The position numbers were made by a program, and so were the translations under genes. Of a stretch of 64,000 bases of DNA, positions 4,119 through 55,876 are shown in pieces. Source of the stretch: an uncultured bacterium (GTDB lineage: Bacteria > Patescibacteriota > Minisyncoccia > Phycocordibacterales > Phycocordibacteraceae); assembly GCA_963759775.1 (NCBI GenBank), contig CAVXAH010000001.1:38787-102786 (forward strand), in the 5' to 3' direction. Under the pieces are notes generated by a model, which saw nothing but the letters and a program-made list of their open reading frames with translations, searched no databases and was not told where the DNA came from. The stretch's first letter is position 1, and every line of letters starts with the position of its first letter.

Positions 4119-4131
4119 CCCCGTTAGAGGC
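4119..4131. repeat. solo copy of the CCCCGTTAGAGGC terminal-repeat motif (family A) between rplQ and rplM
   Basis: 13-nt identity with the left end of the 55758-55876 element; no partner within 150 bp. Confidence 0.4.
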
Positions 4132-4147
4132 TCCACGATATAACCCT

Positions 4148-4549
4148 ATGACATCAACCATGACATCAACCCCAAAAACCAAAGCCTCTAATGGGGTGCA
4201 AGAAACGAGCTTCACCATTGACGCAACGAACCGCACACTTGGCCGTGTGGCAAGCGAGGCGGCGCATGCGCTTCTTGGGAAGCGTTCCGTGCACTTCGCA
4301 AAGCATATTCCACTTCCCGTGAACGTCACAATAGAAAACGTCGCCAAGCTCCACCTCCCCGAGCGCCGCACAAAAGGAAAGGTGTACCTCTACTACACCG
4401 GTTATCCAGGCGGCCAGAGGGCAGTACGCATGGACGAATTCATCGCTAAGAAGGGCATTGAAGAAGCTGTTCGTAAAACGGTAGATGGCATGATTCCTCG
4501 TAACAAGCTCCGCCGCGAGCGCATGAAGCGCCTTACGGTCACCAAATAA
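4148..4549 (+). CDS. rplM: 50S ribosomal protein L13
   Basis: 133 aa, L13 core similarity (NRTLGRVASE..., RMIPRNKL). Confidence 0.9.
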   Translation: MTSTMTSTPKTKASNGVQETSFTIDATNRTLGRVASEAAHALLGKRSVHFAKHIPLPVNVTIENVAKLHLPERRTKGKVYLYYTGYPGGQRAVRMDEFIAKKGIEEAVRKTVDGMIPRNKLRRERMKRLTVTK

Positions 4550-5798: not shown

Positions 5799-5822
5799 AC
5801 TCCAGACTTTCTTTCAGGCATA

Positions 5823-5871
5823 CCCCGTATAAGAACTTTCTATAAAACTTGAAAAAAGTTTCTATACGGGG
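5823..5871. promoter_or_regulatory. inverted repeat CCCCGTATA-N31-TATACGGGG with nested AT-rich hairpin, 15 nt upstream of grpE; candidate heat-shock operator
   Basis: 9-bp perfect arms; internal aaactt-gaaaa-aagttt hairpin and a TTTCTATA direct repeat; not CIRCE or HAIR consensus. Confidence 0.4.
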
Positions 5872-5885
5872 CATAGTGGAGACCA

Positions 5886-8465: not shown

Positions 8466-9554
8466 ATGGCTAAGGACTACTACTCAGTGCTGGGAGTTGA
8501 TAAGAAGGCAAGTACGGACGATATTAAGAAGGCGTTCCGCAAACTTGCTCACAAATACCATCCGGACAAGGGCGACGGGGACGAAGCGAAATTTAAAGAA
8601 GTAACGGAGGCGTACAGCGTCCTTGCGGACGAAAAGAAGCGTCGCGAATACGACACGTACGGTCAGGCATTTGCGGGTGGAGGAAGACGCGGTGGCGCTC
8701 CCGATTTTGGTGGTTTTGATTTTAGCCAGTTCCAACAGGGGTTCGGTAACGGTGGCGTGGAGTTTGACTTCGGAGACGTGTTTGAAGGATTTGGGGACAT
8801 TTTTGGTGGCGGGCGCCGCAGCAACCGCGCGAAGCGCGGTCGTGATATTTCTATTGACCTTGAAGTCACCTTCAAAGAATCCATTTACGGTACGAAGCGC
8901 ACTGTTTTGATAGCGAAAATTGCGACTTGCACCTCCTGCGCAGGCACCGGAGCCAAGTCTGAAACAGAAATGGAGACCTGCAAAACTTGCAATGGTTCAG
9001 GTCGTGTCCACGAGGCAAGGAATTCTATTCTCGGCCAGTTCACGAGCGTGCGCACCTGCGTTATGTGCGACGGGCTCGGAAAGATACCGAAAGAGAAATG
9101 CGCGGAGTGCAAAGGTCATGGCGTTCATCGCAAAGAAGAGGAAATTCAGGTGATGATCCCCGCTGGTCTTGAAAACGGCGAAATGATTCGTCTGCCTGCG
9201 CAAGGCGAAGCAGTGAAGGGCGGTTCTGCCGGTGACCTTTATGTAAAAGTGCATGTTGCGCCACACCCTACGTTTAGAAAGGACGGCAGCAACCTCGTTA
9301 TGGAGCTTCCCGTGAAGCTTACCGACGCGCTCCTTGGGAGCACGGTCTCTATTGAGACACTTGAAGGTAAAACACTTGAGGTGAAGATTCCACAAATGCA
9401 GCGCGCCGAAGAAATACTCCGTGTGAAAGGGAAGGGTGTGTCGTATGAAAACGGACGCGGCGACTTGCTTATCCACGTGCACGCTGCACTCCCGCACAAG
9501 CTCTCCGGTAAAGCGAAGAAGGCGGTAGAGGACCTGAAAGCAGAAGGACTCTAG
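8466..9554 (+). CDS. dnaJ: chaperone DnaJ
   Basis: J-domain with HPD (KYHPDK), G/F-rich linker, four CxxCxGxG zinc-finger repeats, C-terminal domains. Confidence 0.95.
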
Positions 9555-9701
9555 AACCCATTTCAAAATTTCGACACGAGCGGGGCACTGTCTCCGAGGG
9601 GGTCGCGAAGTACGACGGTGCGAGCGTTTCAGGCGTTTTTTGAGCACAAAAATGCCGTACCCGAGAAGGCAGTATCCCGTGAGTGGGTTTTGAAATGGGT
9701 T
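9555..9701. repeat. about 147-bp intergenic element with 14-bp terminal inverted repeat AACCCATTTCAAAA (family D, copy 1)
   Basis: about 85% identical to 51107-51246; internal conserved hairpin ggcgtttttt-gagcac-aaaaa(a)cgcc with a G-U compatible substitution. Confidence 0.7.
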
Positions 9702-9737
9702 CTAAAAGCCGCACCCGCGGTGAGTTAGAATATATGC

Positions 9738-10259: not shown

Positions 10260-10302
10260 TCAGCCCGCCTCTTGTGCTCCGTGGTATATTTTTGTCATGA
10301 AT

Positions 10303-10417
10303 CCCGTTAGAAATCGCGGACGCCGTCGAAGCCGTAAAGCGGGTTTTTTTACTAACCTTAATCGGATAGGGTTCGGTCGTGCAGTTACCTGCGTGTCCGC
10401 GTCCTATTTCTAACGGG
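10303..10417. repeat. MITE-like element (family A), TIR CCCGTTAGAAAT / ATTTCTAACGGG, abutting the tyrS ATG
   Basis: 12-bp perfect TIR extended by a covarying stem (atcgcggacgc / gcgtgtccgcg); internal TAATCGGATAGGG core shared, in inverted orientation, with 49096-49198. Confidence 0.7.
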
Positions 10418-11670
10418 ATGAACATCGCTGAGGATTTGAAGGCGCGAGGGCTCGTGGAGCACTCATCTGCTGATGTCGCCACCATTCTTGGCACCCCGCG
10501 TACGGTGTACCTCGGCATAGACCCCACTGCCGACTCACTCCACGTCGGGCACTTAGTTCCCATTCTTTTTATGAAGCGGCTTGCCGCGGCAGGTCATAAG
10601 CTTGTCTTTTTGGTTGGGGGCGGTACCGGCATGATTGGCGATCCGAAAGAGAAAGGGGAGCGCGTACTGCTTGATGAGAAAACCATAAGTAAAAATACGG
10701 AGGCTCTCAAAAAACAACTTGAAGACATTTTGGGACGCTTGCCATTCAAAATGGTAGACAACGCCACATGGCTCTCTAAGGTCCGTCTTGTGCCATTCCT
10801 TCGCGACATAGGAAAACACTTCACCGTAAACGACCTCGTAAAGCGCGACCTCATAGCAAAACGCCTTGCAACTCCGGATGAGAGTATTTCGTACACTGAA
10901 TTCACCTACTCACTTCTCCAGGCCTATGATTATTTGGAATTAAATACTAAATACCACTGCGATCTTCAGGTTGGGGCTTCGGACCAATGGACGAACATTC
11001 TTTCGGGTGTTGACCTTATCCGCAAGAAAAAGGAAAAGAAGCGTTCGCGCTCACGGTTCCTTTGGTTACTGACGCGAGCGGCAAAAAGTTTGGGAAATCC
11101 GAAGGAAATGCAGTATGGCTTGACCCTGAGAAGACATCTCCGTACCAGTTCTATCAGTTTTGGCTTGGCTTACCGGACGAAGGCATAGAAAAGTATCTCA
11201 AGATTTATACTACTCTTCCGCTTGGAGACATTGAGGCACTTATGGAGAAGCATCGCGCGGCTCCACAAGAGCGCGAGGCGCAAGAGGTGCTTGCGCGTTT
11301 CGCGACTGAGTCGTTGCATGGCCCAGCAAATACCGCAGAAGCGGCGGCGGCAACCGATGCGCTTTTTGGCGGACGCTCTCTTGAAAGCCTTAGTCGCGAC
11401 GAGCGTGAGGCGGTCATACGAGAAGTCCCATCCCTCGCACTTTCAAAGAAAGAACTTGAGGCAGGGTATCCACTTACTGAAGCACTAGTGGGAGGTAAGC
11501 TTGCTTCCTCAAAGTCCGATGCGCGCCGACTTATAGAAGGGAAGGCGGTTACTCTAAGCGGGCTGTTAATCGAAAATGCAGATCAAAAACTCTATCCGGG
11601 CGACCTCAGTGGCGGCCTCGCACTCATTCGCAAAGGCAAGCGCGATGTGCTCGTTTTGGTTTTGAAATAA
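10418..11670 (+). CDS. tyrS: tyrosyl-tRNA synthetase, apparent frameshift near 11030-11040 (A-run)
   Basis: class I HIGH motif (LHVGHL), KFGKSEGN (KMSKS-like), C-terminal S4 domain; pieces 10418-11188 and 11062-11670 colinear with TyrRS; start taken as MNIAEDLKARGLVE at 10418. Confidence 0.9.
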
Positions 11671-11699: not shown

Positions 11700-11783
11700 G
11701 CGTCGGTAGGTAAGTGGTCAAAACACGCACGCTGTAAACGTGCTGCCCTCGCGGCTTCGGAGGTTCGAATCCTCCCCGGCGCA
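11700..11783 (+). tRNA. tRNA-Tyr (anticodon GTA), type II with long variable arm; CCA not encoded
   Basis: acceptor stem GCGTCGG/CCGGCGC (one G-U), anticodon stem GCACG/CGTGC with loop CTGTAAA, T-arm GGAGG-TTCGAAT-CCTCC; D-arm pairing weak. Confidence 0.7.
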
Positions 11784-11798
11784 CACAAAAAAGGACGT

Positions 11799-11828
11799 CC
11801 CGAGCGTGAGCTCGGGCGTTTCTTTTTG
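11799..11828 (+). terminator. rho-independent terminator after tRNA-Tyr
   Basis: cccgagc-gtga-gctcggg followed by cgtttcttttt. Confidence 0.6.
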
Positions 11829-11833
11829 TGGCA

Positions 11834-11850
11834 GCCGGGGAGGATTCGAA
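11834..11850. repeat. inverted 17-nt copy of the tRNA-Tyr T-arm/acceptor 3' segment
   Basis: gccggggaggattcgaa is the exact reverse complement of ttcgaatcctccccggc at 11764-11780. Confidence 0.8.
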
Positions 11851-18004: not shown

Positions 18005-19425
18005 GGCTTGTTTTTACAAAAGGAACGATAGACGCCGCCCCCAAGGGTTATGTACGCGTGCGGATCACTCACGAACCAAAAGGAACGAGGAAGTTTGTTC
18101 GCGAGGGCGCCGTTGAGTGGCTTGAGCTCGGTGCAGGAAAACCAACGGACATGAACTACCGTAAGTTTATGGTGCTGTGCCGATCTGTTGTTCAAACCGC
18201 TAAAGGAAATAAAGCAAGAAAAATTGCTATTCAGTTTGACCGTACTCCTGAATTTTTTGAAAATTTGCAGAACCATACGCCTGAAGAAATTTCACGTGTC
18301 GCGGCAGAGAATTTTGAGATGGCGAACTTTGACTGGAATGTCTTTAAAACGAAACCAAAAGAGGGGTGGAATACGGTAGAAGAAATCCTCCTCTACGGCG
18401 GGTCTTCAAAGTCAATTGAGAAGGCTGCGCAAGTGGGTCAGATGGTGGGGCAGGGCGTAAATGCCTGCCGGGCACTTGCAAACACCCCAGGGGGCGACAT
18501 GACTCCCCTGAAGCTCGCCAAAGCCGCAAAAGAGGCTGTAAAAGGGCTTGCCGGTCAAGGTAACTACCCTTGGGCAAGAAAGAGATGGAAAAGCTTGGTA
18601 TGGGGGCTCTTTTGGGGGTCGCAAAAGGGTCGTCCGAGGAGCCTACATTTACCGTCATGGAGTACCGAGCTGGCGGCAAAGAAAAGCCCAGTCGTGCTTG
18701 CCGGTAAGGGAGTTACGTTTGATAGCGGCGGACTCAATTTGAAACCCTCCGGAAGCATTTATGAAATGCATATGGATATGTCGGGTGCCGCTTCTGTCAT
18801 ACACGCCGTTGCGCTCGCCGCTCGTCTCAAACTCAAAAAGAATGTCATCGGACTTCTTCCGTCCGTTGAAAACATGCCGGGCAATAGCGCGTATCGCCCC
18901 GGAGATGTGCTCAAATCTCTTTCTGGAAAAACTATTGAGGTCTTGAATACGGATGCAGAGGGTCGCCTGATTCTTGCCGATGCACTTACGTATGCAAAAC
19001 GTTTCAATCCGTCAGTTGTATTTGATGTAGCGACACTCACTGGTGCAGCAGTCTCTGCGCTTGGTCTTCATGCAAGCGGACTCATGACGCGCGACGACAA
19101 AGTCGCGAAAAAAGTGGAGGAAGCGGGCGAGGAGTCGGGAGATTATGTGTGGCGTCTCCCGCTTTGGGATGAATACGAAGAAGCGATAAAGGGAACGTTC
19201 GCTGATATCACTAATTCCGCAACGGGCCCGTACGCGCGTTCTGGCGGCGCAATAGAGGGCGGCATGTTCCTCTGGCAATTTGCAAAAGAACTCGGAGTGC
19301 CCGTGGGTGCATCTTGATATTGCGCCACGGATGACTGCGGCGCCGGGAGACGAGCTTGCGAAGGGTGCGGCCGGAGCCCCCGTGCGACTCCTGGTAAAAT
19401 TTATAGAACAATGGCCGTCACACTA
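18001..19425 (+). CDS. pepA: leucyl aminopeptidase (M17 family), with clustered apparent frameshifts (near 18550, 18575, 18690, 19300)
   Basis: NTDAEGRL signature and VLAGKGVTFDSGG; alternative frames encode KKEMEKLGMGALLGVAKGS and the true C-terminus WVHLDIAPRM...VRLLVKFIEQW ending at 19425. Confidence 0.85.
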
Positions 19426-19548
19426 AACAGTGTTGCCGCACGCACGATTACGAGAGTGGTACTATTTAAAAATGACTTTCCCTACACGAAAATCCCCAAG
19501 TCCTAATGACGGTGCGGCCAAAGCCGCGACACCGTTTTAGTGTGTCGG
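19415..19548. repeat. MITE-like element (family B), TIR CCGTCACACTAAAC / GTTTTAGTGTGTCGG, filling the pepA-scpA junction
   Basis: each TIR is the exact reverse complement of the opposite TIR of the GIY-YIG element at 22259-22542; the left TIR contains the pepA stop codon. Confidence 0.75.
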
Positions 19549-19551
19549 CCA

Positions 19552-20289
19552 ATGGAAACCCTAGTTCATCGCACTGGATTTTCTATTAAAACTGCCTCGT
19601 ATGAGGGACCCTTTGAGGTTGTGCTTGACCTTATAGAGGCACGTAAACTTTTGATAAATGAATTTGCGCTCGCAACCATAACTGACGACTACATTCAGCA
19701 TGTTCGAAAGCAGGAAACATTTCCGGTTGAGCAAACGGCAAATTTCATTCAAATCGCTGCAACTCTCCTCCTCATAAAATCAAAGTCGCTTATTCCGGAC
19801 CTTGAGCTCACCGAAGATGAGCAGGGGGATGTGGAGGATTTGAAGAGACGACTTGCTACGTACGAGCGTGTACGAGACGCGGCGCGCGAGCTTGCTCGTG
19901 TGTTTGGAAAAGAAGTGATGCTCCCGGCAGGGGAGAAGAAGCCTGAGGTCATGTTTGCGCCTGCGGCAGATATGACGAGCTTGGCGCTTTCCGAAGCGCT
20001 CGCGCGTGTACTTGCCGCACGCGAAGCAGTGGAAGAACTCCCCGAAGCGCGCGTAAAGCCGATGATTACTATTGAAGAGATGATGGATCGTCTCGCAAAA
20101 CGTGTGCAGTCGGCCATGACGCTTTCTTTCAAGGAATTCTCCGGAACCGCAAAAGAAAAAGTGGAAGTGATTGTTTCTTTCCTCGCTCTCCTTGAGCTTG
20201 TGAAGCAGGGTGCCGTTGGTGCGGAGCAGTTTGAAAACCACGGCGATATTCGTATTTCTCATACCGGCACAGGCGTCCCGAGCTATTGA
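19552..20289 (+). CDS. scpA: segregation and condensation protein A
   Basis: ScpA family N-terminus (FEGPFEVVLDLIEARKL..I.E..LA.ITDDY) and C-terminal winged helix; start taken at METLV. Confidence 0.8.
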   Translation: METLVHRTGFSIKTASYEGPFEVVLDLIEARKLLINEFALATITDDYIQHVRKQETFPVEQTANFIQIAATLLLIKSKSLIPDLELTEDEQGDVEDLKRRLATYERVRDAARELARVFGKEVMLPAGEKKPEVMFAPAADMTSLALSEALARVLAAREAVEELPEARVKPMITIEEMMDRLAKRVQSAMTLSFKEFSGTAKEKVEVIVSFLALLELVKQGAVGAEQFENHGDIRISHTGTGVPSY

Positions 20290-20554: not shown

Positions 20555-20597
20555 CAAGCCCCCGCTGCAAAACCTAGGTTTTGCAGCGGGGGCTTTA
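20555..20597 (+). terminator. rho-independent terminator
   Basis: agcccccgctgcaaaacc-tag-ggttttgcagcgggggcttt. Confidence 0.7.
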
Positions 20598-30823: not shown

Positions 30824-31267
30824 CTATTCTGCCTCAACGATTATTTGGAACTTGCCGAAACTCTCTCCTGCAGAGACTGGGACATCAAACGTGCCGACTT
30901 CTTTGATTGGCTTTTCAAGGCGAACTACGTCTTCTGGGAGTTCAATGTGAGCCTGCTCACGAACTGCATCGAGAATCTCTGTCTCCCCCACTGCGTCGTA
31001 GAGGTGCCCTTTCTCGTTCACCTTCATCTTGATTACAATGCGCTTCTCGCCAAGCGTCTCCAAGCTCTGGGCTACCAAGGTTCCCTGCATTTTGCGCTGT
31101 ACGTCCATCTGCTTCTTCCTGAGCTCTGCGTTCTTGCTAGCCGCCGGAGTAGCAGGAATGGCCATTTTCTTAGGGATAAGGAAGTTCAGGCCATGCCCGT
31201 CCGACACCGTGATGGTGTCGTGCATTCGGCCTGTGTCCTTCACATCTTTCGTCAATATAACTTTCAT
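30824..31267 (-). CDS. rplI: 50S ribosomal protein L9
   Basis: MKVILTKDVK..G..GD...V..G...NFL N-terminal domain, 147 aa. Confidence 0.9.
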   Translation of the reverse strand: MKVILTKDVKDTGRMHDTITVSDGHGLNFLIPKKMAIPATPAASKNAELRKKQMDVQRKMQGTLVAQSLETLGEKRIVIKMKVNEKGHLYDAVGETEILDAVREQAHIELPEDVVRLEKPIKEVGTFDVPVSAGESFGKFQIIVEAE

Positions 31268-31268
31268 A

Positions 31269-31404
31269 CCCTGGGGTACAGCATGGCATTGCTCCTAAGT
31301 GGCTAGCCGTGACGTAGAAATATAGAGATTATTAAATCAATACCGCACGAGGAGCAGAGCGGACATCGGAGCAAAAAGCCACGATGCCATGCTGTCCCAC
31401 GGGG
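31269..31404. repeat. MITE-like element (family C), 21-bp TIR CCCTGGGGTACAGCATGGCAT, directly upstream of the rplI start
   Basis: right end ATGCCATGCTGTCCCACGGGG is a near-perfect reverse complement; second copy at 53369-53500. Confidence 0.7.
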
Positions 31405-31446
31405 CATAGTCAGGCTATCCTAACCGTTTAAACGCCAAAAGGCAAC

Positions 31447-47362: not shown

Positions 47363-49095
47363 AGTGAGGAGGGCGTAGTGGCACGGTCGGGCGGTACGTC
47401 GTAGTAATTAATCAGGAAGTGAGTCAGGTTCATGAAGGTAGAAGTGAGTGTTTCGGATGCGTAGCGAACCCCTTGCGGATCGTTGGTGTAAAGGAGAATG
47501 ATAAACCGCGGCGCGTACGAAGGAAAGTAGCCGAAGAAGGAGTGGAAGTACCTATCTTTGTAGTACCCGCCTCCGGGCATGGTGAGCTGGGCAGTTCCGG
47601 TCTTTGCCGCAACAGACATAGACGCTATTTTTTCCTTTCCCTGCGCAAGGTCAAAGTCAACGACGTGAGTAAGCATTCCCGCGACCGTGCGCACTGCCTC
47701 CGGAGAAAACACCTCCACTGTCTCCGGTGGCTCAAGAGTCCGCGTGATGCCGGTATCAAGCTTAATGGCGCGCGTGAGGTAGGGCCGAGCCATTGCCCCG
47801 TCGTTTGCGAGCGCACTTAAGGCACTTATCATTTGCACCGGTGTTACCGCGATACCTTGGCCAAATGAGGCGGTGTCGTAACCTACCTGCTGCGGCCTTG
47901 AGATGTTTTGGAGAAGACTTCCCGTTTCACTTGGAAGGTCAATGTGTGTCTTCTCGCCAAAGAGGGTCGTGAAGTACGTTCGGAGTCGCTCTTTGCCGAG
48001 TTGTCGCCCAACCCAGGAGGCGCCGAGGTTCAAAGATTCCGACAAAATTTGCTGTACCGCTACCCTTCCGCGCGCCTTGAGGTCAAAGTTGCAAATAGTG
48101 TAGGTATCCACGTCCATACAACCCGTATCGTTATAGGTTGAGTCGGCGGTTATCGCATCCGCATCAAGGCCAGCGGCCACAGTGAGTGGCTTCACTATGG
48201 AGCCAAATTCATACACATGCTCCACAAGCGGATTCCCGAGAACCGCCGGGTCAACACTTGAGAGATCGTTCGGGTTGTAGGTCGGGACCGTGAGAAGAGC
48301 GAGAACGGCTCCTGTGCGCGGGTCCATAATGATTCCGCCTGTTTCTTTGCTCTTAAATTTCGCGTGCACTGCTTTAATTTCACTCTCAAGCCGAGTCGCA
48401 ACCGCGGGCTCAATGGTGGTTACCACATTGCCCTCACGTACGTTTTTTGTATCAATGAGTAAATCCCCCGCGCCTGAGAAAAGGGTTGCGAAGAAATTTT
48501 TATAAAGAGAGTCACCGCTGCGCGCGAGTGTGTGGTCATAGTACGACTCAAGACCTGTTCGTCCGGAAAGACTGTCGCCGCTACCATAGGAAACGATGCC
48601 AACTGACTGTGCCGCAAGCGTCCCTCCAGGATACTCTCTCCAGCGCTCACGAAGCACTATGACGCCGGGTATTTTAAGCGCGGCGAGCGCGCGACCTTCC
48701 TCTTCCAAAAGATGATGCGCTATCTCAACATACACACGCTCGGACCGTAGAGATGCGGCGAGGAATACCTCACGGTCAATGGTAGAGGTGGCGAGTGCGG
48801 TCGTAAGGGAGTTGTAAGCGGCTTCGGGGTCTTTAAGGGTCTGGGGATTCATTGCGAGCAAAAACCCCGTTTGAAGGGTCGCGGCTGAAATGAGTGCTCC
48901 GTCCTTGCGAGTGAAATAAATAGACCCGCGATCAAAAAGTCCACTTATGCCGCCGGAAAACTGCCGCTCGGCCTTGAGCGCATACGTTTCTCCCTGCACG
49001 ATTTGGACAATGTAGAGGCGTCCGGCGATAAGGATCGCGATGATAAGAATTCCGAGAAATACAAGTCGGATACGGAGTCTAAACTGCGCGCGCAT
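47359..49095 (-). CDS. ftsI: penicillin-binding protein (transpeptidase; FtsI/PBP3-like)
   Basis: SxxK (SIVK), KTGTA motifs, N-terminal TM; dcw position before murF. Confidence 0.9.
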   Translation of the reverse strand: MRAQFRLRIRLVFLGILIIAILIAGRLYIVQIVQGETYALKAERQFSGGISGLFDRGSIYFTRKDGALISAATLQTGFLLAMNPQTLKDPEAAYNSLTTALATSTIDREVFLAASLRSERVYVEIAHHLLEEEGRALAALKIPGVIVLRERWREYPGGTLAAQSVGIVSYGSGDSLSGRTGLESYYDHTLARSGDSLYKNFFATLFSGAGDLLIDTKNVREGNVVTTIEPAVATRLESEIKAVHAKFKSKETGGIIMDPRTGAVLALLTVPTYNPNDLSSVDPAVLGNPLVEHVYEFGSIVKPLTVAAGLDADAITADSTYNDTGCMDVDTYTICNFDLKARGRVAVQQILSESLNLGASWVGRQLGKERLRTYFTTLFGEKTHIDLPSETGSLLQNISRPQQVGYDTASFGQGIAVTPVQMISALSALANDGAMARPYLTRAIKLDTGITRTLEPPETVEVFSPEAVRTVAGMLTHVVDFDLAQGKEKIASMSVAAKTGTAQLTMPGGGYYKDRYFHSFFGYFPSYAPRFIILLYTNDPQGVRYASETLTSTFMNLTHFLINYYDVPPDRATTPSSL

Positions 49096-49198
49096 CCCGT
49101 TAGAAATAGAACACGAACACTCTCGAAGTGTTGTGCCCTATCCGATTAGGTCCAATAATCATATGCCTCATCATATCGTGTTCGTGATTTCTAACGGG
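49096..49198. repeat. MITE-like element (family A), TIR CCCGTTAGAAAT / ATTTCTAACGGG, abutting the ftsI start codon
   Basis: 12-bp perfect TIRs, covarying sub-terminal stem (agaacacgaaca / tgttcgtgat), internal CCCTATCCGATTAGG core inverted relative to 10303-10417. Confidence 0.7.
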
Positions 49199-49213
49199 AC
49201 GCATTGTACAAGA

Positions 49214-51106: not shown

Positions 51107-51246
51107 TATTTCAAAACCTCAACACGAGCGGGGCACTGCATCCGAGGGGGTCGCGAAGTTGGGCGGTGCGAGCGTTTCAGGCGTTTTTTGAGCACAAAAA
51201 ACGCCGTACCTGAGGAGGTAGTGGCCCGTGAGTGGGTTTTGAAATA
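51107..51246. repeat. about 140-bp element with 12-bp TIR TATTTCAAAACC (family D, copy 2), ending 4 nt from the lysK stop
   Basis: about 85% identity with 9555-9701 including the perfect hairpin ggcgtttttt-gagcac-aaaaaacgcc. Confidence 0.7.
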
Positions 51247-53320: not shown

Positions 53321-53368
53321 ACGTGTGCTGTTTGCGGGCATTGTACGTGCTCTGCTCTGAAGCGCAAG

Positions 53369-53500
53369 CCCTGGGGTACAACATGGCATCGTGTCTTTAG
53401 CTCCAACGATCAAAAGCTATAAACCTTTTGTTTTTATGTGACGTCTGGCAACTGAAATAAACGTAGGACACGAAGAGTAATGCCATGTTGTCCCACGGGG
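53369..53500. repeat. MITE-like element (family C) copy 2, TIR CCCTGGGGTACAACATGGCAT / ATGCCATGTTGTCCCACGGGG, 48 nt upstream of greA
   Basis: TIRs match 31269-31404; internal sequence differs but keeps sub-terminal complementarity. Confidence 0.7.
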
Positions 53501-53524
53501 CAAGCCCATAAGGAAAAATCGATT

Positions 53525-55222
53525 TTATTTGAAGTAGTCCGAGGCAGTTTCGCGAAGTTCCGAAAACACCTGGCTCATGACGTAAATACCGCCAAGCGTA
53601 TTTGTTGAAGGACCACGTTCCATAACCACCACATACACATATTTCGGTTTTTCATACGGAAAAAAACCGACTGCCCAAGAGTTGTGGTACTCGTTCCGGA
53701 CGCCTGTCTGCGCCGTGCCTGTTTTTCCTGCAAGATGCGCGAGAGAGTCAAACGAAATAAGTCCGCTTGAAGTACCATCTCGTACTCCTTGCCGCATACC
53801 TTCGCGCACGATTTGAAGTGCCTCTTTAGTAATGGGAAGTTCTACGCCTTCTGACGGCGCGTCCGGAAGACGTGTCGTGGACTCCTTGAGGACGGTCGGG
53901 GTAACAAGCACTCCGTCATTTGCTACCGCCGCAATCGCACGCGCCATTTCAAGAGCTGTCACCTGCATCGCATATTGCCCGATCGCGGTGTGGTACGTGT
54001 TGCCGATATTCCACTTCTCACCATACGTTTCTTCTTTCCAGCTTGGAGTTGGCACAAAGCCGCTCGCTTCCCCGGGAAGCGCCACACCGGCCGGATCCGT
54101 AAGACCAAATGTGCGATACCAGTATGCGAGGCGTTCAATACCAAGTCCCTTCTGAGCGCCGAACCCTCCACCGACGATGTAGAAATAAATGTCGGAAGAC
54201 CATGCAATTGCCCTCCGTAGATCAACGGTCCCATGTATCTTCCAATCTTTAAATATATTGGGATTTTCTGGATTGTAAGGGTTCGGTATGGAAATAAAAC
54301 CTTTGCTGTCGTAAATGGTGTATTCCGGTGTAATGATGCCGTCAGTGAGCGCGCCGGCTGCGAGAAGTGGCTTCACGACAGAGCCTGGCGCATAGAGCCC
54401 CTGCACAGGCCGATTGAGGTACGGACGGCGCGCGTCCTTGCTATAGCCCTCAATAACACTTGAGGGTCCGCCCGAGGCAAGCACGTTCGGGTCGTATTCA
54501 GGATACGAAACGAGTGCGCGTAGTTCTCCCGTATCTACATCCATCAAAATGCCAGAGCCACCGGAAAACGAGACGTTGTCTGCGAGACCCTTGATAGCTT
54601 TATAAAATGCCTCTTGCACACGCGCATCTATGGAAAGCGTGAGGGAGTGCCCAGGCACGGCAGGCACCACAACACCTTGGGACTTCACTTCGCCAAGGGC
54701 ATCTGTTTCAACAAGGAGACGACCTCCCTCTCCGCGAAGTTCTGCATCATAGGAAGCCTCAATACCTGCGAGACCTTTTGTTTCCGTACTGTAGTAATTG
54801 CCCTTGGAATCTTTTTTGGGGTATGAAACGTACCCTAGGAGTGCTCCGAACCCTGGCGTTTTGTATACGCGGCGAACGAAGCCGCCCTCGGTTGCTTCGT
54901 TCGTGATGAGTGGGATGCCGTTAGTGTCAGAAATGATGCCGCGTTCTGCAAACAACACATGCTCCTCAAGCGAGTTTCGTTCGCTCGCCTCGGCATAGGT
55001 GCTCCCCTGTCGGACTTGTAAATTCCAAACCTGTGCAAGAAGGAGAAGCAGAATGAGACCGAGCGACCCACCGAGTAGGACGAACGCAGAGCGCGCGAGC
55101 GGGCGTTCAAGCCTGCCTTCAAAACGCGAGCGGTCAAACTCCGAGACGTTTGCATCATCAAGAAATATTTCGTCTGGATCTATCTCAAAACCTCGTGTTT
55201 TTCTTTTTCCCCACAATCTCAT
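53525..55222 (-). CDS. mrdA: penicillin-binding protein 2 (elongasome transpeptidase)
   Basis: SxxK (SVVKP), KTGTA motifs; upstream of mreD/mreC/mreB. Confidence 0.9.
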   Translation of the reverse strand: MRLWGKRKTRGFEIDPDEIFLDDANVSEFDRSRFEGRLERPLARSAFVLLGGSLGLILLLLLAQVWNLQVRQGSTYAEASERNSLEEHVLFAERGIISDTNGIPLITNEATEGGFVRRVYKTPGFGALLGYVSYPKKDSKGNYYSTETKGLAGIEASYDAELRGEGGRLLVETDALGEVKSQGVVVPAVPGHSLTLSIDARVQEAFYKAIKGLADNVSFSGGSGILMDVDTGELRALVSYPEYDPNVLASGGPSSVIEGYSKDARRPYLNRPVQGLYAPGSVVKPLLAAGALTDGIITPEYTIYDSKGFISIPNPYNPENPNIFKDWKIHGTVDLRRAIAWSSDIYFYIVGGGFGAQKGLGIERLAYWYRTFGLTDPAGVALPGEASGFVPTPSWKEETYGEKWNIGNTYHTAIGQYAMQVTALEMARAIAAVANDGVLVTPTVLKESTTRLPDAPSEGVELPITKEALQIVREGMRQGVRDGTSSGLISFDSLAHLAGKTGTAQTGVRNEYHNSWAVGFFPYEKPKYVYVVVMERGPSTNTLGGIYVMSQVFSELRETASDYFK

Positions 55223-55226
55223 GGAT

Positions 55227-55493
55227 TTATCCCGTTAGAGATAGGAAGCGCTTGAGCCGGTTTTTGAGATAACGCTTACCCATTCCCGTTTTGAGGTACT
55301 TTTCACGCGCAAAAGCATCTTCGGCCGTTTGAGATGCTTCGTAATATATGAGTGTGAATGGACCACGTCCTTTAGTGTACGCCACTCGATTTGAATTGTG
55401 CAGGGCCAAGCGCTTCCGAAGATCTTTCGTGCAGCCGGTATACCATCGACCGTCACTTTTAGCTTGGAGAACGTACACATACACAAACGACAT
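55227..55493 (-). CDS. GIY-YIG nuclease superfamily protein (YhbQ/UPF0213-like), paralog of 22291-22539
   Basis: 88 aa, VYVYVL....G.WYTGCT.DL.KRL..H and YYEA motifs. Confidence 0.8.
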   Translation of the reverse strand: MSFVYVYVLQAKSDGRWYTGCTKDLRKRLALHNSNRVAYTKGRGPFTLIYYEASQTAEDAFAREKYLKTGMGKRYLKNRLKRFLSLTG

Positions 55494-55506
55494 AATCTCT
55501 AACGGG
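55231..55506 (-). mobile_element. TIR-flanked GIY-YIG gene unit (family A putative autonomous copy)
   Basis: perfect 12-bp TIRs CCCGTTAGAGAT / ATCTCTAACGGG lie 1-3 nt outside the stop and start codons of the GIY-YIG ORF; same TIR family as three MITE-like copies. Confidence 0.6.
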
Positions 55507-55758
55507 ACGCGATAATACTCGTCTCAAAGAATCTGCGCACGGAATAGGAAAGCAGTGCGGCGAGTGCCCCAAGAGTGCTGTACAGAAAGGGTGGATGTAT
55601 ACCCGGGACATAGTAGAGAATGTCAGCGAAAAGCCCTATAGCAAGCACCGAAAGTGGCGAGACGATTCCCGCAAGTAGCGCGAGCAGTCCCGATACGACT
55701 GCTGGAAATACAAAAAGTGAGGCGATGGCAGACAAAATAATGGTCGCGCGGATGTTCA
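55499..55758 (-). CDS. mreD: putative rod shape-determining protein MreD (small polytopic membrane protein)
   Basis: position after mreC; hydrophobic 85-110 aa; annotated from the GTG at 55758 because the longer ATG start (55834) lies inside the repeat element. Confidence 0.45.
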
Positions 55759-55876
55759 CCCCGTTAGAGGCAGGTCGCGACCCAACATCAACTCGAGATC
55801 GTTGGGTGAAAAAGAGATTTTTACCGTAATTCATATTTAACTCTTAATCGAACGGGACCGCGGCCTCTAACGGGGG
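55758..55876. repeat. MITE-like element (family A), CCCCGTTAGAGGC / GCCTCTAACGGGG, overlapping the mreC 3' end and mreD 5' end
   Basis: imperfect about 20-bp TIRs including a covarying extension (aggtcgcgac / ggaccgcggc); internal ctcttaatcgaacggg resembles the family core. Confidence 0.6.

Follow-up and report, generated by a model that had tools for sequence, protein, structure and literature searches.

Inverted-repeat elements with a GIY-YIG nuclease-coding form frequently abut start codons in a patescibacterial genome and in related loci

Five family A elements in the window

The stretch of DNA analyzed here (the window, 64,000 nucleotides) comes from contig CAVXAH010000001.1 of an uncultured bacterium of the family Phycocordibacteraceae (Patescibacteriota). 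It contains five copies (A1 to A5) of an inverted-repeat element, referred to as family A. Family A is a family of transposable elements and not a dedicated regulatory motif, as shown by its repeats, its target-site duplication, a coding parent, deletion derivatives and empty sites. The 9-mers TCTAACGGG and CCCGTTAGA have nine exact sites in the window, compared to 0.38 expected, and none of 100 shuffles reaches nine. All nine sites resolve into the five inverted-repeat pairs. The neighboring genes were identified by Pfam as those for TyrS, two class-B penicillin-binding proteins (ftsI and mrdA), MreC and ribosomal protein L13 (rplM).

A1 is a short (non-autonomous) element on the plus strand, at 10302–10418 including its terminal T...A pair (core 10303–10417, 115 bp). 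The tyrS ATG at 10418 takes its first base from the right terminal A, and the TyrS Pfam match has an E value of 1e-47. The left copy of the target-site duplication, TGAA (10298–10301), lies inside the old start context ATGAA (10297–10301), and the TG of the right copy (10419–10422) completes the rebuilt tyrS ATG (10418–10420). A2, a short element of the A1 subfamily, is located on the minus strand at 49095–49199 with its terminal pair (core 49096–49198, 103 bp), and its end is flush with the ftsI ATG (49095–49093). Its duplication is TGCG, with the gene-proximal copy at 49091–49094 and the distal copy at 49200–49203, which is part of the old ATG context (49204–49200). The minus strand therefore reads ATGCGT[element]ATGCGC. 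The terminal inverted repeats of A1 and A2 are perfect over 12–14 bp.

The remaining three elements have no target-site duplication. A3, on the minus strand between putative mreD and mrdA, is a full-length element at 55230–55507, with a 276-bp core (55231–55506) and the terminal pair. It ends 8 nt from the mrdA ATG at 55222, and its architecture is that of 68 full-length copies in 80 related loci (L001–L080). A4 is a short element between mreC and putative mreD (55759–55875, minus strand; core 55760–55874, 115 bp). A hydrophobic open reading frame (ORF) between mreC and mrdA, putatively mreD, starts with the GTG at 55759, whose G is the terminal base of A4. A5 is a short element on the plus strand at 4119–4196 (core 4120–4195, 76 bp), with a degenerate right repeat, TCTAATGGG, that has one mismatch. 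Its terminal G is the first base of the rplM GTG at 4196, and the L13 Pfam match begins three codons later. Exact contact with a start codon is found in four of the five elements (tyrS ATG, ftsI ATG, putative mreD GTG and rplM GTG). The four short copies (A1, A2, A4 and A5; 76–115 bp) all lack a nuclease gene.

A preliminary description of this DNA had noticed elements resembling miniature inverted-repeat transposable elements (MITEs) directly 5' of start codons, at tyrS (10418) and ftsI (49095, minus strand) and at 8 nt from mrdA. All three placements are confirmed, and the MITE-like character holds for inverted repeats, small size, multiple copies and target-site duplications. However, the copy near mrdA that was taken as a MITE is the full-length A3, with an intact GIY-YIG ORF (PF01541, E value 3e-14). 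The supposedly solo CCCCGTTAGAGGC upstream of rplM has a partner, GCCTCTAATGGGG (one mismatch), which ends exactly at GTG 4196, making A5 a complete element. A4, beside putative mreD, was absent from that description.

Full-length and short copies across phyla

A protein search with one genome per species gave 408 relatives of the A3 nuclease among 500 candidate stretches, from which the 80 loci L001–L080 were kept. The kept loci have 64–79% identity to the A3 nuclease, and the test for terminal inverted repeats covered relatives of 64–81% identity. The loci come from many Patescibacteria lineages and from Omnitrophota, Elusimicrobiota, Planctomycetota, Desulfobacterota, Syntrophales and others. 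In these loci, 68 nuclease ORFs are bounded by exact CCCGTTAGA and TCTAACGGG, 272–312 bp apart, and short pairs of 26–190 bp are found as well. A metagenome scan with CCCGTTAGAAAT-N70-100-ATTTCTAACGGG added at least 120 loci with at least 127 distinct short copies. The sampled DNA, about 2.0 Mb, contains roughly 270 copies with a bimodal size distribution, about 70 nuclease-coding units (272–282 bp) and about 200 short derivatives. No longer unit bounded by the repeats and a duplication, and free of inner repeats, was found in this sample. The only ORF between the repeats there is that of the GIY-YIG protein, the RAYT proteins not having been searched for in whole genomes.

One short copy (L073:3043-3161) retains the first ~20 codons of the nuclease, and AAAT-type full-length copies have a 3' coding end (TTC CTA TTT CTA ACG GG) that equals TCCTATTTCTAACGGG, the 'bulge' that marks one end of A1-type copies. 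Based on these sequences, the short copies are derived from the nuclease unit by internal deletion. A3 and 68 others are coding partners with ends identical to those of the short copies, and their protein is of a class that is not a recognized transposase.

A few minimal copies of 26–30 bp consist of little more than the two 12–13-bp arms (L010:6537-6562, L024:10242-10270, L043:2917-2946 and L201:2558-2585). They may be end-products of deletion or footprints.

A blastn search with a full-length copy found no match in plasmids. The matches in viral contigs are mostly an unrelated 91-bp repeat, CCCGTTAGAACG...CGTTCTAACGGG, in one phage group (L202–L205 and L207), which does not have the flanks described below. 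Only L201 and L209 among these matches are family A-like. L209:3736-3827, on a contig classed as viral, is apparently a genuine family A copy, with the flanks ATGAAT[...]ATGAAC.

Anatomy of the insertions

The unit of family A is Y-CCCGTTAGA...TCTAACGGG-R, and its flanks follow the pattern N1-N2N3N4N5-Y-[element]-R-N2N3N4N5-N6. In the 13-bp inverted repeat the outer 9 bp are invariant, and the first and the last three positions vary only in a complementary fashion. The bases Y and R are also complementary (among 61 full-length copies, T...A occurs 29 times and C...G 28 times), and the terminal pair therefore belongs to the element. The same follows from the flanks ATGAAC[...]GTGAAT, where a C...G element has turned an ATG target into GTG.

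The four bases N2–N5 are repeated directly in 48 of 120 copies, compared to 13 by permutation (maximum 25 in 2000), and the duplication is perfect in 143 of 269 copies of a larger set. The main classes are TGAA/TTCA (66), TAAA/TTTA (36) and TCAA/TTGA (14), with the consensus T-N-N-A. Three other arrangements were rejected. A palindromic extension of the repeats into the flanks would give inverted matches, of which there are 4 against 10.5 expected. A duplication of 6 bp or 2 bp is ruled out by the flanks ATGAAC[...]GTGAAT, by the free sixth base, by duplications that include non-consensus bases (TGAG and TGCG), and by an empty site with CTCA.

Seven comparisons of occupied and empty sites all fit Y[...]R with 4 bp duplicated. 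At tyrS, the closest relative (TyrS identity 85%, with an orthologous upstream membrane-protein gene at 40% identity) has no element and contains ATGAAT once (L211/L212), reading ...TATACTcgctgcATGAATCTT / ...TAGctctgcTATACTcgctgcATGAATCTTGCC. The occupied site in the window reads ...TATATTtttgtcATGAAT[A1]ATGAACATCGCT. Further occupied and empty pairs are L022/L068, L065/L055 (two sites), L011/L004 (a full-length copy) and L051/L036, and in L005 an insertion into the repeat of another copy fits the same model. Seven tandem pairs are present, and in six of them the spacer (5–6 nt) is R, the duplication and Y. Tandem elements 5–6 nt apart, most of them with this spacer, are located at L051:254-607, L073:2763-3161, L078:405-846, L102:12-117, L134:2611-2832 and L135:6132-6366. 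Such spacers indicate repeated insertion at one 4-bp site beside an existing end. Orthology at ftsI was considered for the copies in L022 and L145 and rejected. The protein encoded downstream in L022 begins MRAITFDIES and differs from FtsI, and the two copies are independent hits on ATGCG.

Contact with start codons

Contact with a start codon that is followed by at least 60 open codons is found in 44 of 121 copies in related loci, compared to about 1% of random positions. The placement relative to genes is thus not random, in agreement with the preliminary description. Among 191 short copies, 78 are in contact with a start that has 80 or more open codons after it. In the subfamily of A1 and A2, 22 of 24 copies are flanked as ATGNNY[...]RTGNN in one orientation, with the asymmetric end towards the gene; the two exceptions are cttgaC[...]Gttgac (L123) and tacgaaT[...]ATGaac (L186). 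Full-length copies abut the start at their right end in 26 cases and at their left end in one, that is, co-oriented with the downstream gene. In these copies the stop codon of the nuclease overlaps the host start (GGA TGA / ATG A). The host genes are unrelated to each other, and include tyrS, ftsI, mreD, rplM and dozens more.

Where the target is the TGNN of an ATGNN (TGAA, TGCG, TGAG or TGGA), the old ATG remains on the left side of the element after insertion. On the right side, the terminal R together with the duplicated TG rebuilds a start codon, ATG for T...A elements and GTG for C...G elements. TCTAACGGG lies flush against start codons because R and the duplicated TG recreate the start codon. 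The excess at start codons could be due to a preference for the site, to insertions persisting better where imprecise deletion is impossible, or to a combination of the two.

The GIY-YIG nuclease of full-length elements

The nuclease ORF of A3 (55227–55493, minus strand; PF01541, as above) encodes 88 residues. Its last codons, CTA TCT CTA ACG GGA (L-S-L-T-G), are the right repeat TCTAACGGG, and the flank contributes its stop codon, a TAA located 4 nt ahead of the mrdA ATG. At the other end, the stop codon of mreD (TAG, 55501–55499) lies inside the left repeat of A3, 5 nt before the nuclease ATG. Across the phyla the protein mostly ends in ...RFLSLTG, and the stop codon comes from the flank or target in about 50 of the 68 copies.

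By sequence, the protein matches the structures 1zg2 (E value 5e-11) and 1ywl (6.5e-4) in the Protein Data Bank. Residues Y7, Y18, G20, R28, H32 and E52 are invariant in 39 homologs, and the conserved Tyr, Tyr-x-Gly, Arg, His and Glu presumably have catalytic roles. The predicted structure is of high confidence (pLDDT 91). Its first fold neighbor is 1zg2, followed by Slx1 chains (E values 5e-3 to 3e-2), with UvrC and I-TevI at E values of about 1. The nuclease domains of Slx1 superimpose on the model with template-modeling (TM) scores of about 0.62–0.65, and one of these neighbors is Slx1 bound to 5'-flap DNA. The sequence and the model place the A3 protein in the stand-alone UPF0213/Slx1-like branch, nearer to it than to UvrC or the homing enzymes. 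No DNA-binding module was detected, the match to TIGR01453 (18 bits) being below the 56-bit cut-off and Pfam showing the catalytic domain only.

In public records the proteins are named 'GIY-YIG nuclease family protein', 'putative endonuclease' or 'excinuclease ABC subunit C'. The family comprises 7089 clusters at 50% identity (E value up to 1e-3), or 654 at E values up to 1e-10. Many cluster representatives (P0121–P0270) have 110–130 residues, with the 86-residue core at one end. Such lengths are expected if gene callers read into flanks without an immediate stop codon or start at the displaced host ATG.

Pairing of the arms

The preliminary description had noted that the sub-terminal stems differ in sequence between copies yet stay complementary. 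This is borne out by A1 (CGCGGAC/GTCCGCG) and A2 (CACGAAC/GTTCGTG), and it extends to the 24 copies of their subfamily, in which 91% of the cells of the 7-bp sub-terminal helix are paired and three of the seven pairs have changed on both sides, GC/AU exchanges being found at two positions. Across 61 distinct full-length copies, complementarity is essentially always kept at pairs 1–13 (about 99% family-wide), and the pairing collapses at positions 14–15. Pairs 1, 11, 12 and 13 vary with changes on both sides (UA 29 and CG 28 for pair 1; UA 27, CG 19 and AU 13 for pair 13). This pairing is kept although the right arm is coding sequence.

As RNA, A1 and A2 fold into long hairpins (–53.5 kcal/mol with a z score of –4.5, and –46.3 kcal/mol with a z score of –5.4, respectively). 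The interiors of short copies are moderately structured overall, with a mean z score of –1.2 and 25% below –2. The sense and antisense strands have equal folding energies and equal use of G-U pairs, and the complementarity is therefore of the Watson-Crick type at the DNA level. The arm pairing looks like a DNA-level property, and paired DNA arms, or two identical ends, fit the data better than a selected mRNA structure. Of the earlier proposal that the hairpin is under selection, the part concerning arm complementarity stands, as it is kept through compensatory changes; selection at the RNA level is not indicated, as the two strands fold equally well.

Reading frames through the elements

In A1, a frame of 38 codons (10297–10413, plus strand; translation MNPVRNRGRRRSRKAGFFTNLNRIGFGRAVTCVSASYF*) runs from the displaced tyrS ATG through the element and ends within the right repeat, at a TAA that precedes the tyrS ATG (10418) by 4 nt. 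Similarly, a frame of 34 codons (49100–49204, minus strand; translation MRPVRNHEHDMMRHMIIGPNRIGHNTSRVFVFYF*) runs from the old ftsI ATG at 49204 through A2 to a TAA (49102–49100), 4 nt before the ftsI ATG at 49095. The old ftsI ATG is 9 nt past the stop codon (49216–49214) of the upstream ORF. In 63 copies, an old ATG precedes the element and RTG follows it; the frame of the old ATG is open to the end of the element in 28 of them, compared to 7.7 with a shuffled interior and 10 with a reverse-complemented interior. These frames end at the TAA of the repeat (15 copies) or at a TGA overlapping the start (9), or are fused to the host gene (4). An enrichment of 2–2.5 fold is found for the two frames ending at the new start, but not for the fusion frame. 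Of A1-type copies, 14 of 24 have a pass-through frame, and the frame is set by the length of the copy.

Termination followed by re-initiation, at ATGA or TAAnnnnATG operon junctions, is a known mode of translational coupling. The frames in family A end 4 nt before the host start or overlap it, and the A3 nuclease begins 5 nt past the mreD stop codon. On the other hand, the upstream 'gene' in family A is made by insertion, from the displaced start codon of the host. The arrangement of a pass-through frame leading to a new start suggests translational coupling. Ribosomes would still start at the old ATG, keeping the promoter and ribosome-binding context of the host (often leaderless), and would translate through the element, melting the hairpin. 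They would then terminate at the TAA of the right repeat or at the TGA overlapping the new start, and re-initiate on the host gene. This would keep essential genes expressed, and a full-length element would borrow the expression signals of the host. A frame that ends at the rebuilt start is statistically supported as a translational side effect in a subset of the copies.

Upstream of tyrS, an extended –10-like box, TGgTATATT (10282–10290, plus strand), ends 6 nt before the old ATG and is a putative promoter of the leaderless type. The relative with the empty site has TATACT at the same spacing. More generally, the hexamer TANNNT is most frequent at 6 nt before the old ATG (33 of 83, compared to 7 at a control spacing), and motifs resembling the Shine-Dalgarno sequence are rare there (9 of 83). 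A strict scan for sigma-70 –35/–10 sites upstream of tyrS found none. Many of the targets are probably leaderless or tightly coupled genes.

Mobility of family A

The probable explanation overall is a nuclease-coding element with short derivatives, whose insertion rebuilds start codons. The sequences suggest that the GIY-YIG nuclease mobilizes both the full-length and the short forms. The nuclease would recognize the paired arms, as a hairpin or cruciform, together with the invariant terminal 9–10 bp, and repair and ligation by the host would complete the insertion. Whether the 272–282 bp unit is an autonomous transposon of a new class, the smallest known, in which an Slx1-like nuclease of 86–95 residues recognizes the paired ends of the unit as a DNA structure and moves it, aided by host repair, with a 4-bp duplication, and which has evolved to insert at start codons (often those of leaderless genes), to rebuild them and to hand over ribosomes through termination and re-initiation, we consider evenly balanced.

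Several observations weigh against this explanation or parts of it. Strand transfer is beyond a hydrolytic nuclease of 88 residues that has no DNA-binding domain, and requires host functions or an unseen partner. A perfect duplication is lacking in about 47% of the copies, including A3, A4 and A5 in the window. The metagenome sample was picked by exact 12-nt ends, which biases estimates of repeat conservation. The sub-terminal covariation of the A1 subfamily comes from few lineages, with few independent compensatory events. Covariation of the ends can also arise if one protein binds both of them, and does not by itself prove the formation of a hairpin. Positions 10–12 of the repeats of short copies match the neighboring full-length copy in 8 of 36 cases, and any sequence recognition must therefore rest on the invariant outer 9–10 bp. 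The pass-through frame contains internal stop codons in 35 of the 63 start-codon copies and in 8 of the 24 A1-type copies, and part of its openness may be inherited rather than selected. Finally, the suggestion of leaderless promoters derives from a –10-like hexamer and its comparison with a control spacing.

It is unlikely that family A consists of ordinary MITEs moved by a conventional transposase encoded elsewhere, with the GIY-YIG gene as a passenger or an aid to retention. Inverted repeats with a short duplication of fixed length are the classical signature of DDE transposons, and 4-bp duplications occur in known insertion sequence (IS) families. In addition, the nuclease is too small for a complete transposase, and positions 10–12 of short copies seldom match the local coding copy. 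However, the sole coding form among the roughly 270 copies in 2.0 Mb is the nuclease unit, and the short copies are deletion derivatives of this unit. Moreover, its ORF is fused to the right repeat, and in about 50 of the 68 copies, drawn from different phyla, the target supplies the stop codon. A passenger would hardly keep such an arrangement.

The preliminary description had also proposed that the elements act as translational or transcriptional control modules, as well as or instead of being mobile, and its interpretation is partly supported. Elements that are primarily cis-regulatory RNA hairpins, with mobility incidental or extinct, would account for the position at the 5' end of genes, the covariation of the stems, the frame through the element, and the inner box TAATCNNATAGG that A1-type copies have in common; the very stable folds of A1 and A2 (z scores –4.5 and –5.4) would bury the rebuilt start codon. 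This is quite unlikely, given the target-site duplications and empty orthologous sites, the same ends bounding a nuclease gene, the unrelated host genes, and the many copies away from start codons. There is also no asymmetry between sense and antisense in energy or G-U pairs. Rfam found only two tRNAs in the whole window at gathering thresholds, and only a chance SAM/SAH match (9.7 bits) in the A1 region at E values up to 10. A structured cis-regulatory RNA is thus contradicted by the lack of an Rfam family, of strand-specific structure and of related downstream genes. The 'instead of' is not supported, in view of the 4-bp duplications, the orthologous empty sites, the coding parent and the unrelated host genes in many phyla. 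The 'as well as' survives in a limited sense, as a frame through the element to the rebuilt start in a subset of copies.

A homing-type endonuclease, cutting element-free sites or borders such that the element is copied in by double-strand-break repair, is very unlikely. GIY-YIG enzymes do serve free-standing and intron-borne homing genes (PMC2988022, PMC1564403), the elements lie between operon genes like the phage seg and mob genes, and tandem re-insertion occurs at the same 4-bp site beside an existing end. However, the dozens of unrelated sites have only about 2–4 specified bases in common, which leaves no long cognate target. The flank homology needed for homology-directed copying is absent, the regular 4-bp duplication is not explained, and the nuclease has no DNA-binding domain by either the TIGR01453 score (18 bits against the 56-bit cut-off) or Pfam (catalytic domain only).

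That the short start-codon copies are genes for small proteins, selected for their peptides of ~34–38 residues (MNPVRN...SYF), is highly improbable in spite of the open frame in 14 of 24 A1-type copies, the conserved peptide ends (MNPVRN... and ...SYF) and an inner box that always reads N-x-I/L-G in frame, since these ends are merely translated repeats, the interiors are barely alignable (63% mean column identity over five copies), 8 of 24 copies have internal stops, and copies of other lengths use other frames that still end at the start codon, which indicates selection on where translation ends and not on the peptide sequence.

Comparison with known systems

The Correia elements of Neisseria are MITEs at gene borders that are co-transcribed, and the palindromic elements of Rickettsia are translated within host ORFs. 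Family A has in common with them that it is short (about 30–190 bp) and dispersed, with inverted repeats, a short duplication and hairpins, that it lies in or beside genes and is probably co-transcribed, and that ribosomes may read some of the copies. It differs in having a coding parent with identical ends that encodes a GIY-YIG nuclease rather than a DDE transposase, in the start codon rebuilt from the last base and the duplication, and in the presence of the same ends across phyla. The REP/REPIN-RAYT and IS200/IS605 systems use HUH (Y1) enzymes, produce no target duplication, and have sub-terminal hairpins instead of true terminal inverted repeats. An apparent dependence on DNA hairpins, a very small coding unit and many non-autonomous hairpin copies are common to these systems and family A, whereas the GIY-YIG enzyme class and the 4-bp duplication of family A are different.

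Prokaryotic Slx1-like nucleases have been described as vertically inherited repair enzymes with a minimal catalytic domain and no accessory domain (PMC1564403). The A3 nuclease is similar to Slx1/UPF0213 (YhbQ, BH0048) in sequence, fold and minimal catalytic domain. In comparison, the gene in family A is multicopy and found in many phyla, with inverted repeats and duplications on either side and an overlap with its own repeat. Free-standing GIY-YIG homing endonuclease genes are known from the seg genes of phage T4 and the I-TevI family (PMC2988022). The likeness to family A is that of a selfish GIY-YIG gene located between host genes and using their expression signals. The differences are the lack of a DNA-binding domain, the many unrelated sites, the inverted repeats and the 4-bp duplication, and the non-coding derivatives that outnumber the coding copies. 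No description of repeat-bounded GIY-YIG elements, or of transposable elements with only a GIY-YIG protein, was found in an incomplete search of the literature, which amounts to absence of evidence only.

Should the nuclease prove to be the mobility enzyme, the short list of DNA-transposon mechanisms would gain a minimal structure-specific GIY-YIG enzyme, and the lower size limit for an autonomous element would be about 275 bp. Such an autonomous unit would be widespread in Patescibacteria and several other phyla, annotated so far only as 'GIY-YIG nuclease family protein'. The results reassign a very abundant 'repair-like' gene family, of which at least the near relatives tested here act as selfish DNA. 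The rebuilding of the start codon, together with the pass-through frame, offers a testable example of how a parasite could persist ahead of essential genes where the genome leaves hardly any room.

Gene starts beside the elements

The annotation of small, streamlined genomes is affected, as gene starts are mis-called inside elements. The starts of genes beside family A elements are probably mis-annotated in this genome. The public record starts TyrS (269 residues; window 10379–11188) at a GTG inside A1. The mreC frame enters A4 for 10 codons (stop codon 55846–55844). The mreD ORF also reaches into A4, where it has an in-frame internal ATG at 55834. A5 contains two ATGs in the rplM frame, at 4148 and 4160; the rplM ORF from ATG 4148 reaches into A5, and the L13 match starts at residue 20 of this ORF. 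It is likely that mreD and rplM are called with false N-terminal extensions.

The tyrS gene is broken into two overlapping frames (10418–11188 and 11062–11670), both of which match the class-I synthetase domain. In contrast, TyrS of the relatives is one protein of 417 residues. The split is a frameshift, a sequencing error or a pseudogene.

Other repeats in the window

A second MITE-like family, with the ends CCCTGGGGTACAnCATGGCAT / ATGCCATGnTGTCCCACGGGG, is present at 31266–31407 and 53357–53512. Both copies are flanked by a plus-strand CAT, a possible start codon on the minus strand. A third repeat family, of about 140–150 bp, is intergenic (9552–9704 and 51107–51246), with the ends TTTCAAAA.../...TTTTGAAA and a shared interior, CGACACGAGCGGGGCACTG....

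The 55-bp palindrome ACCCCGTATAAGAAC...GTTTCTATACGGGGC at 5820–5874 has ends that resemble those of family A (CCCCGT-T-AGA compared to CCCCGT-ATA-AGA), and it may represent a sister family. A 146-bp unit at 19409–19554 has a 19-nt inverted repeat, CAATGGCCGTCACACTAAA / TTTAGTGTGTCGGCCAATG, and its right end, ...CCAATG, lies directly before an ORF. The 3' end of the tRNA at 11700–11783, TTCGAATCCTCCCCGGCGCAC, recurs in inverted orientation ~50 nt downstream (11764–11850), forming a 37-nt imperfect palindrome. Finally, a perfect 40-bp palindrome, AAGCCCCCGCTGCAAAACCT/AGGTTTTGCAGCGGGGGCTT, at 20556–20595 is followed by T-rich sequence and is probably a bidirectional terminator.

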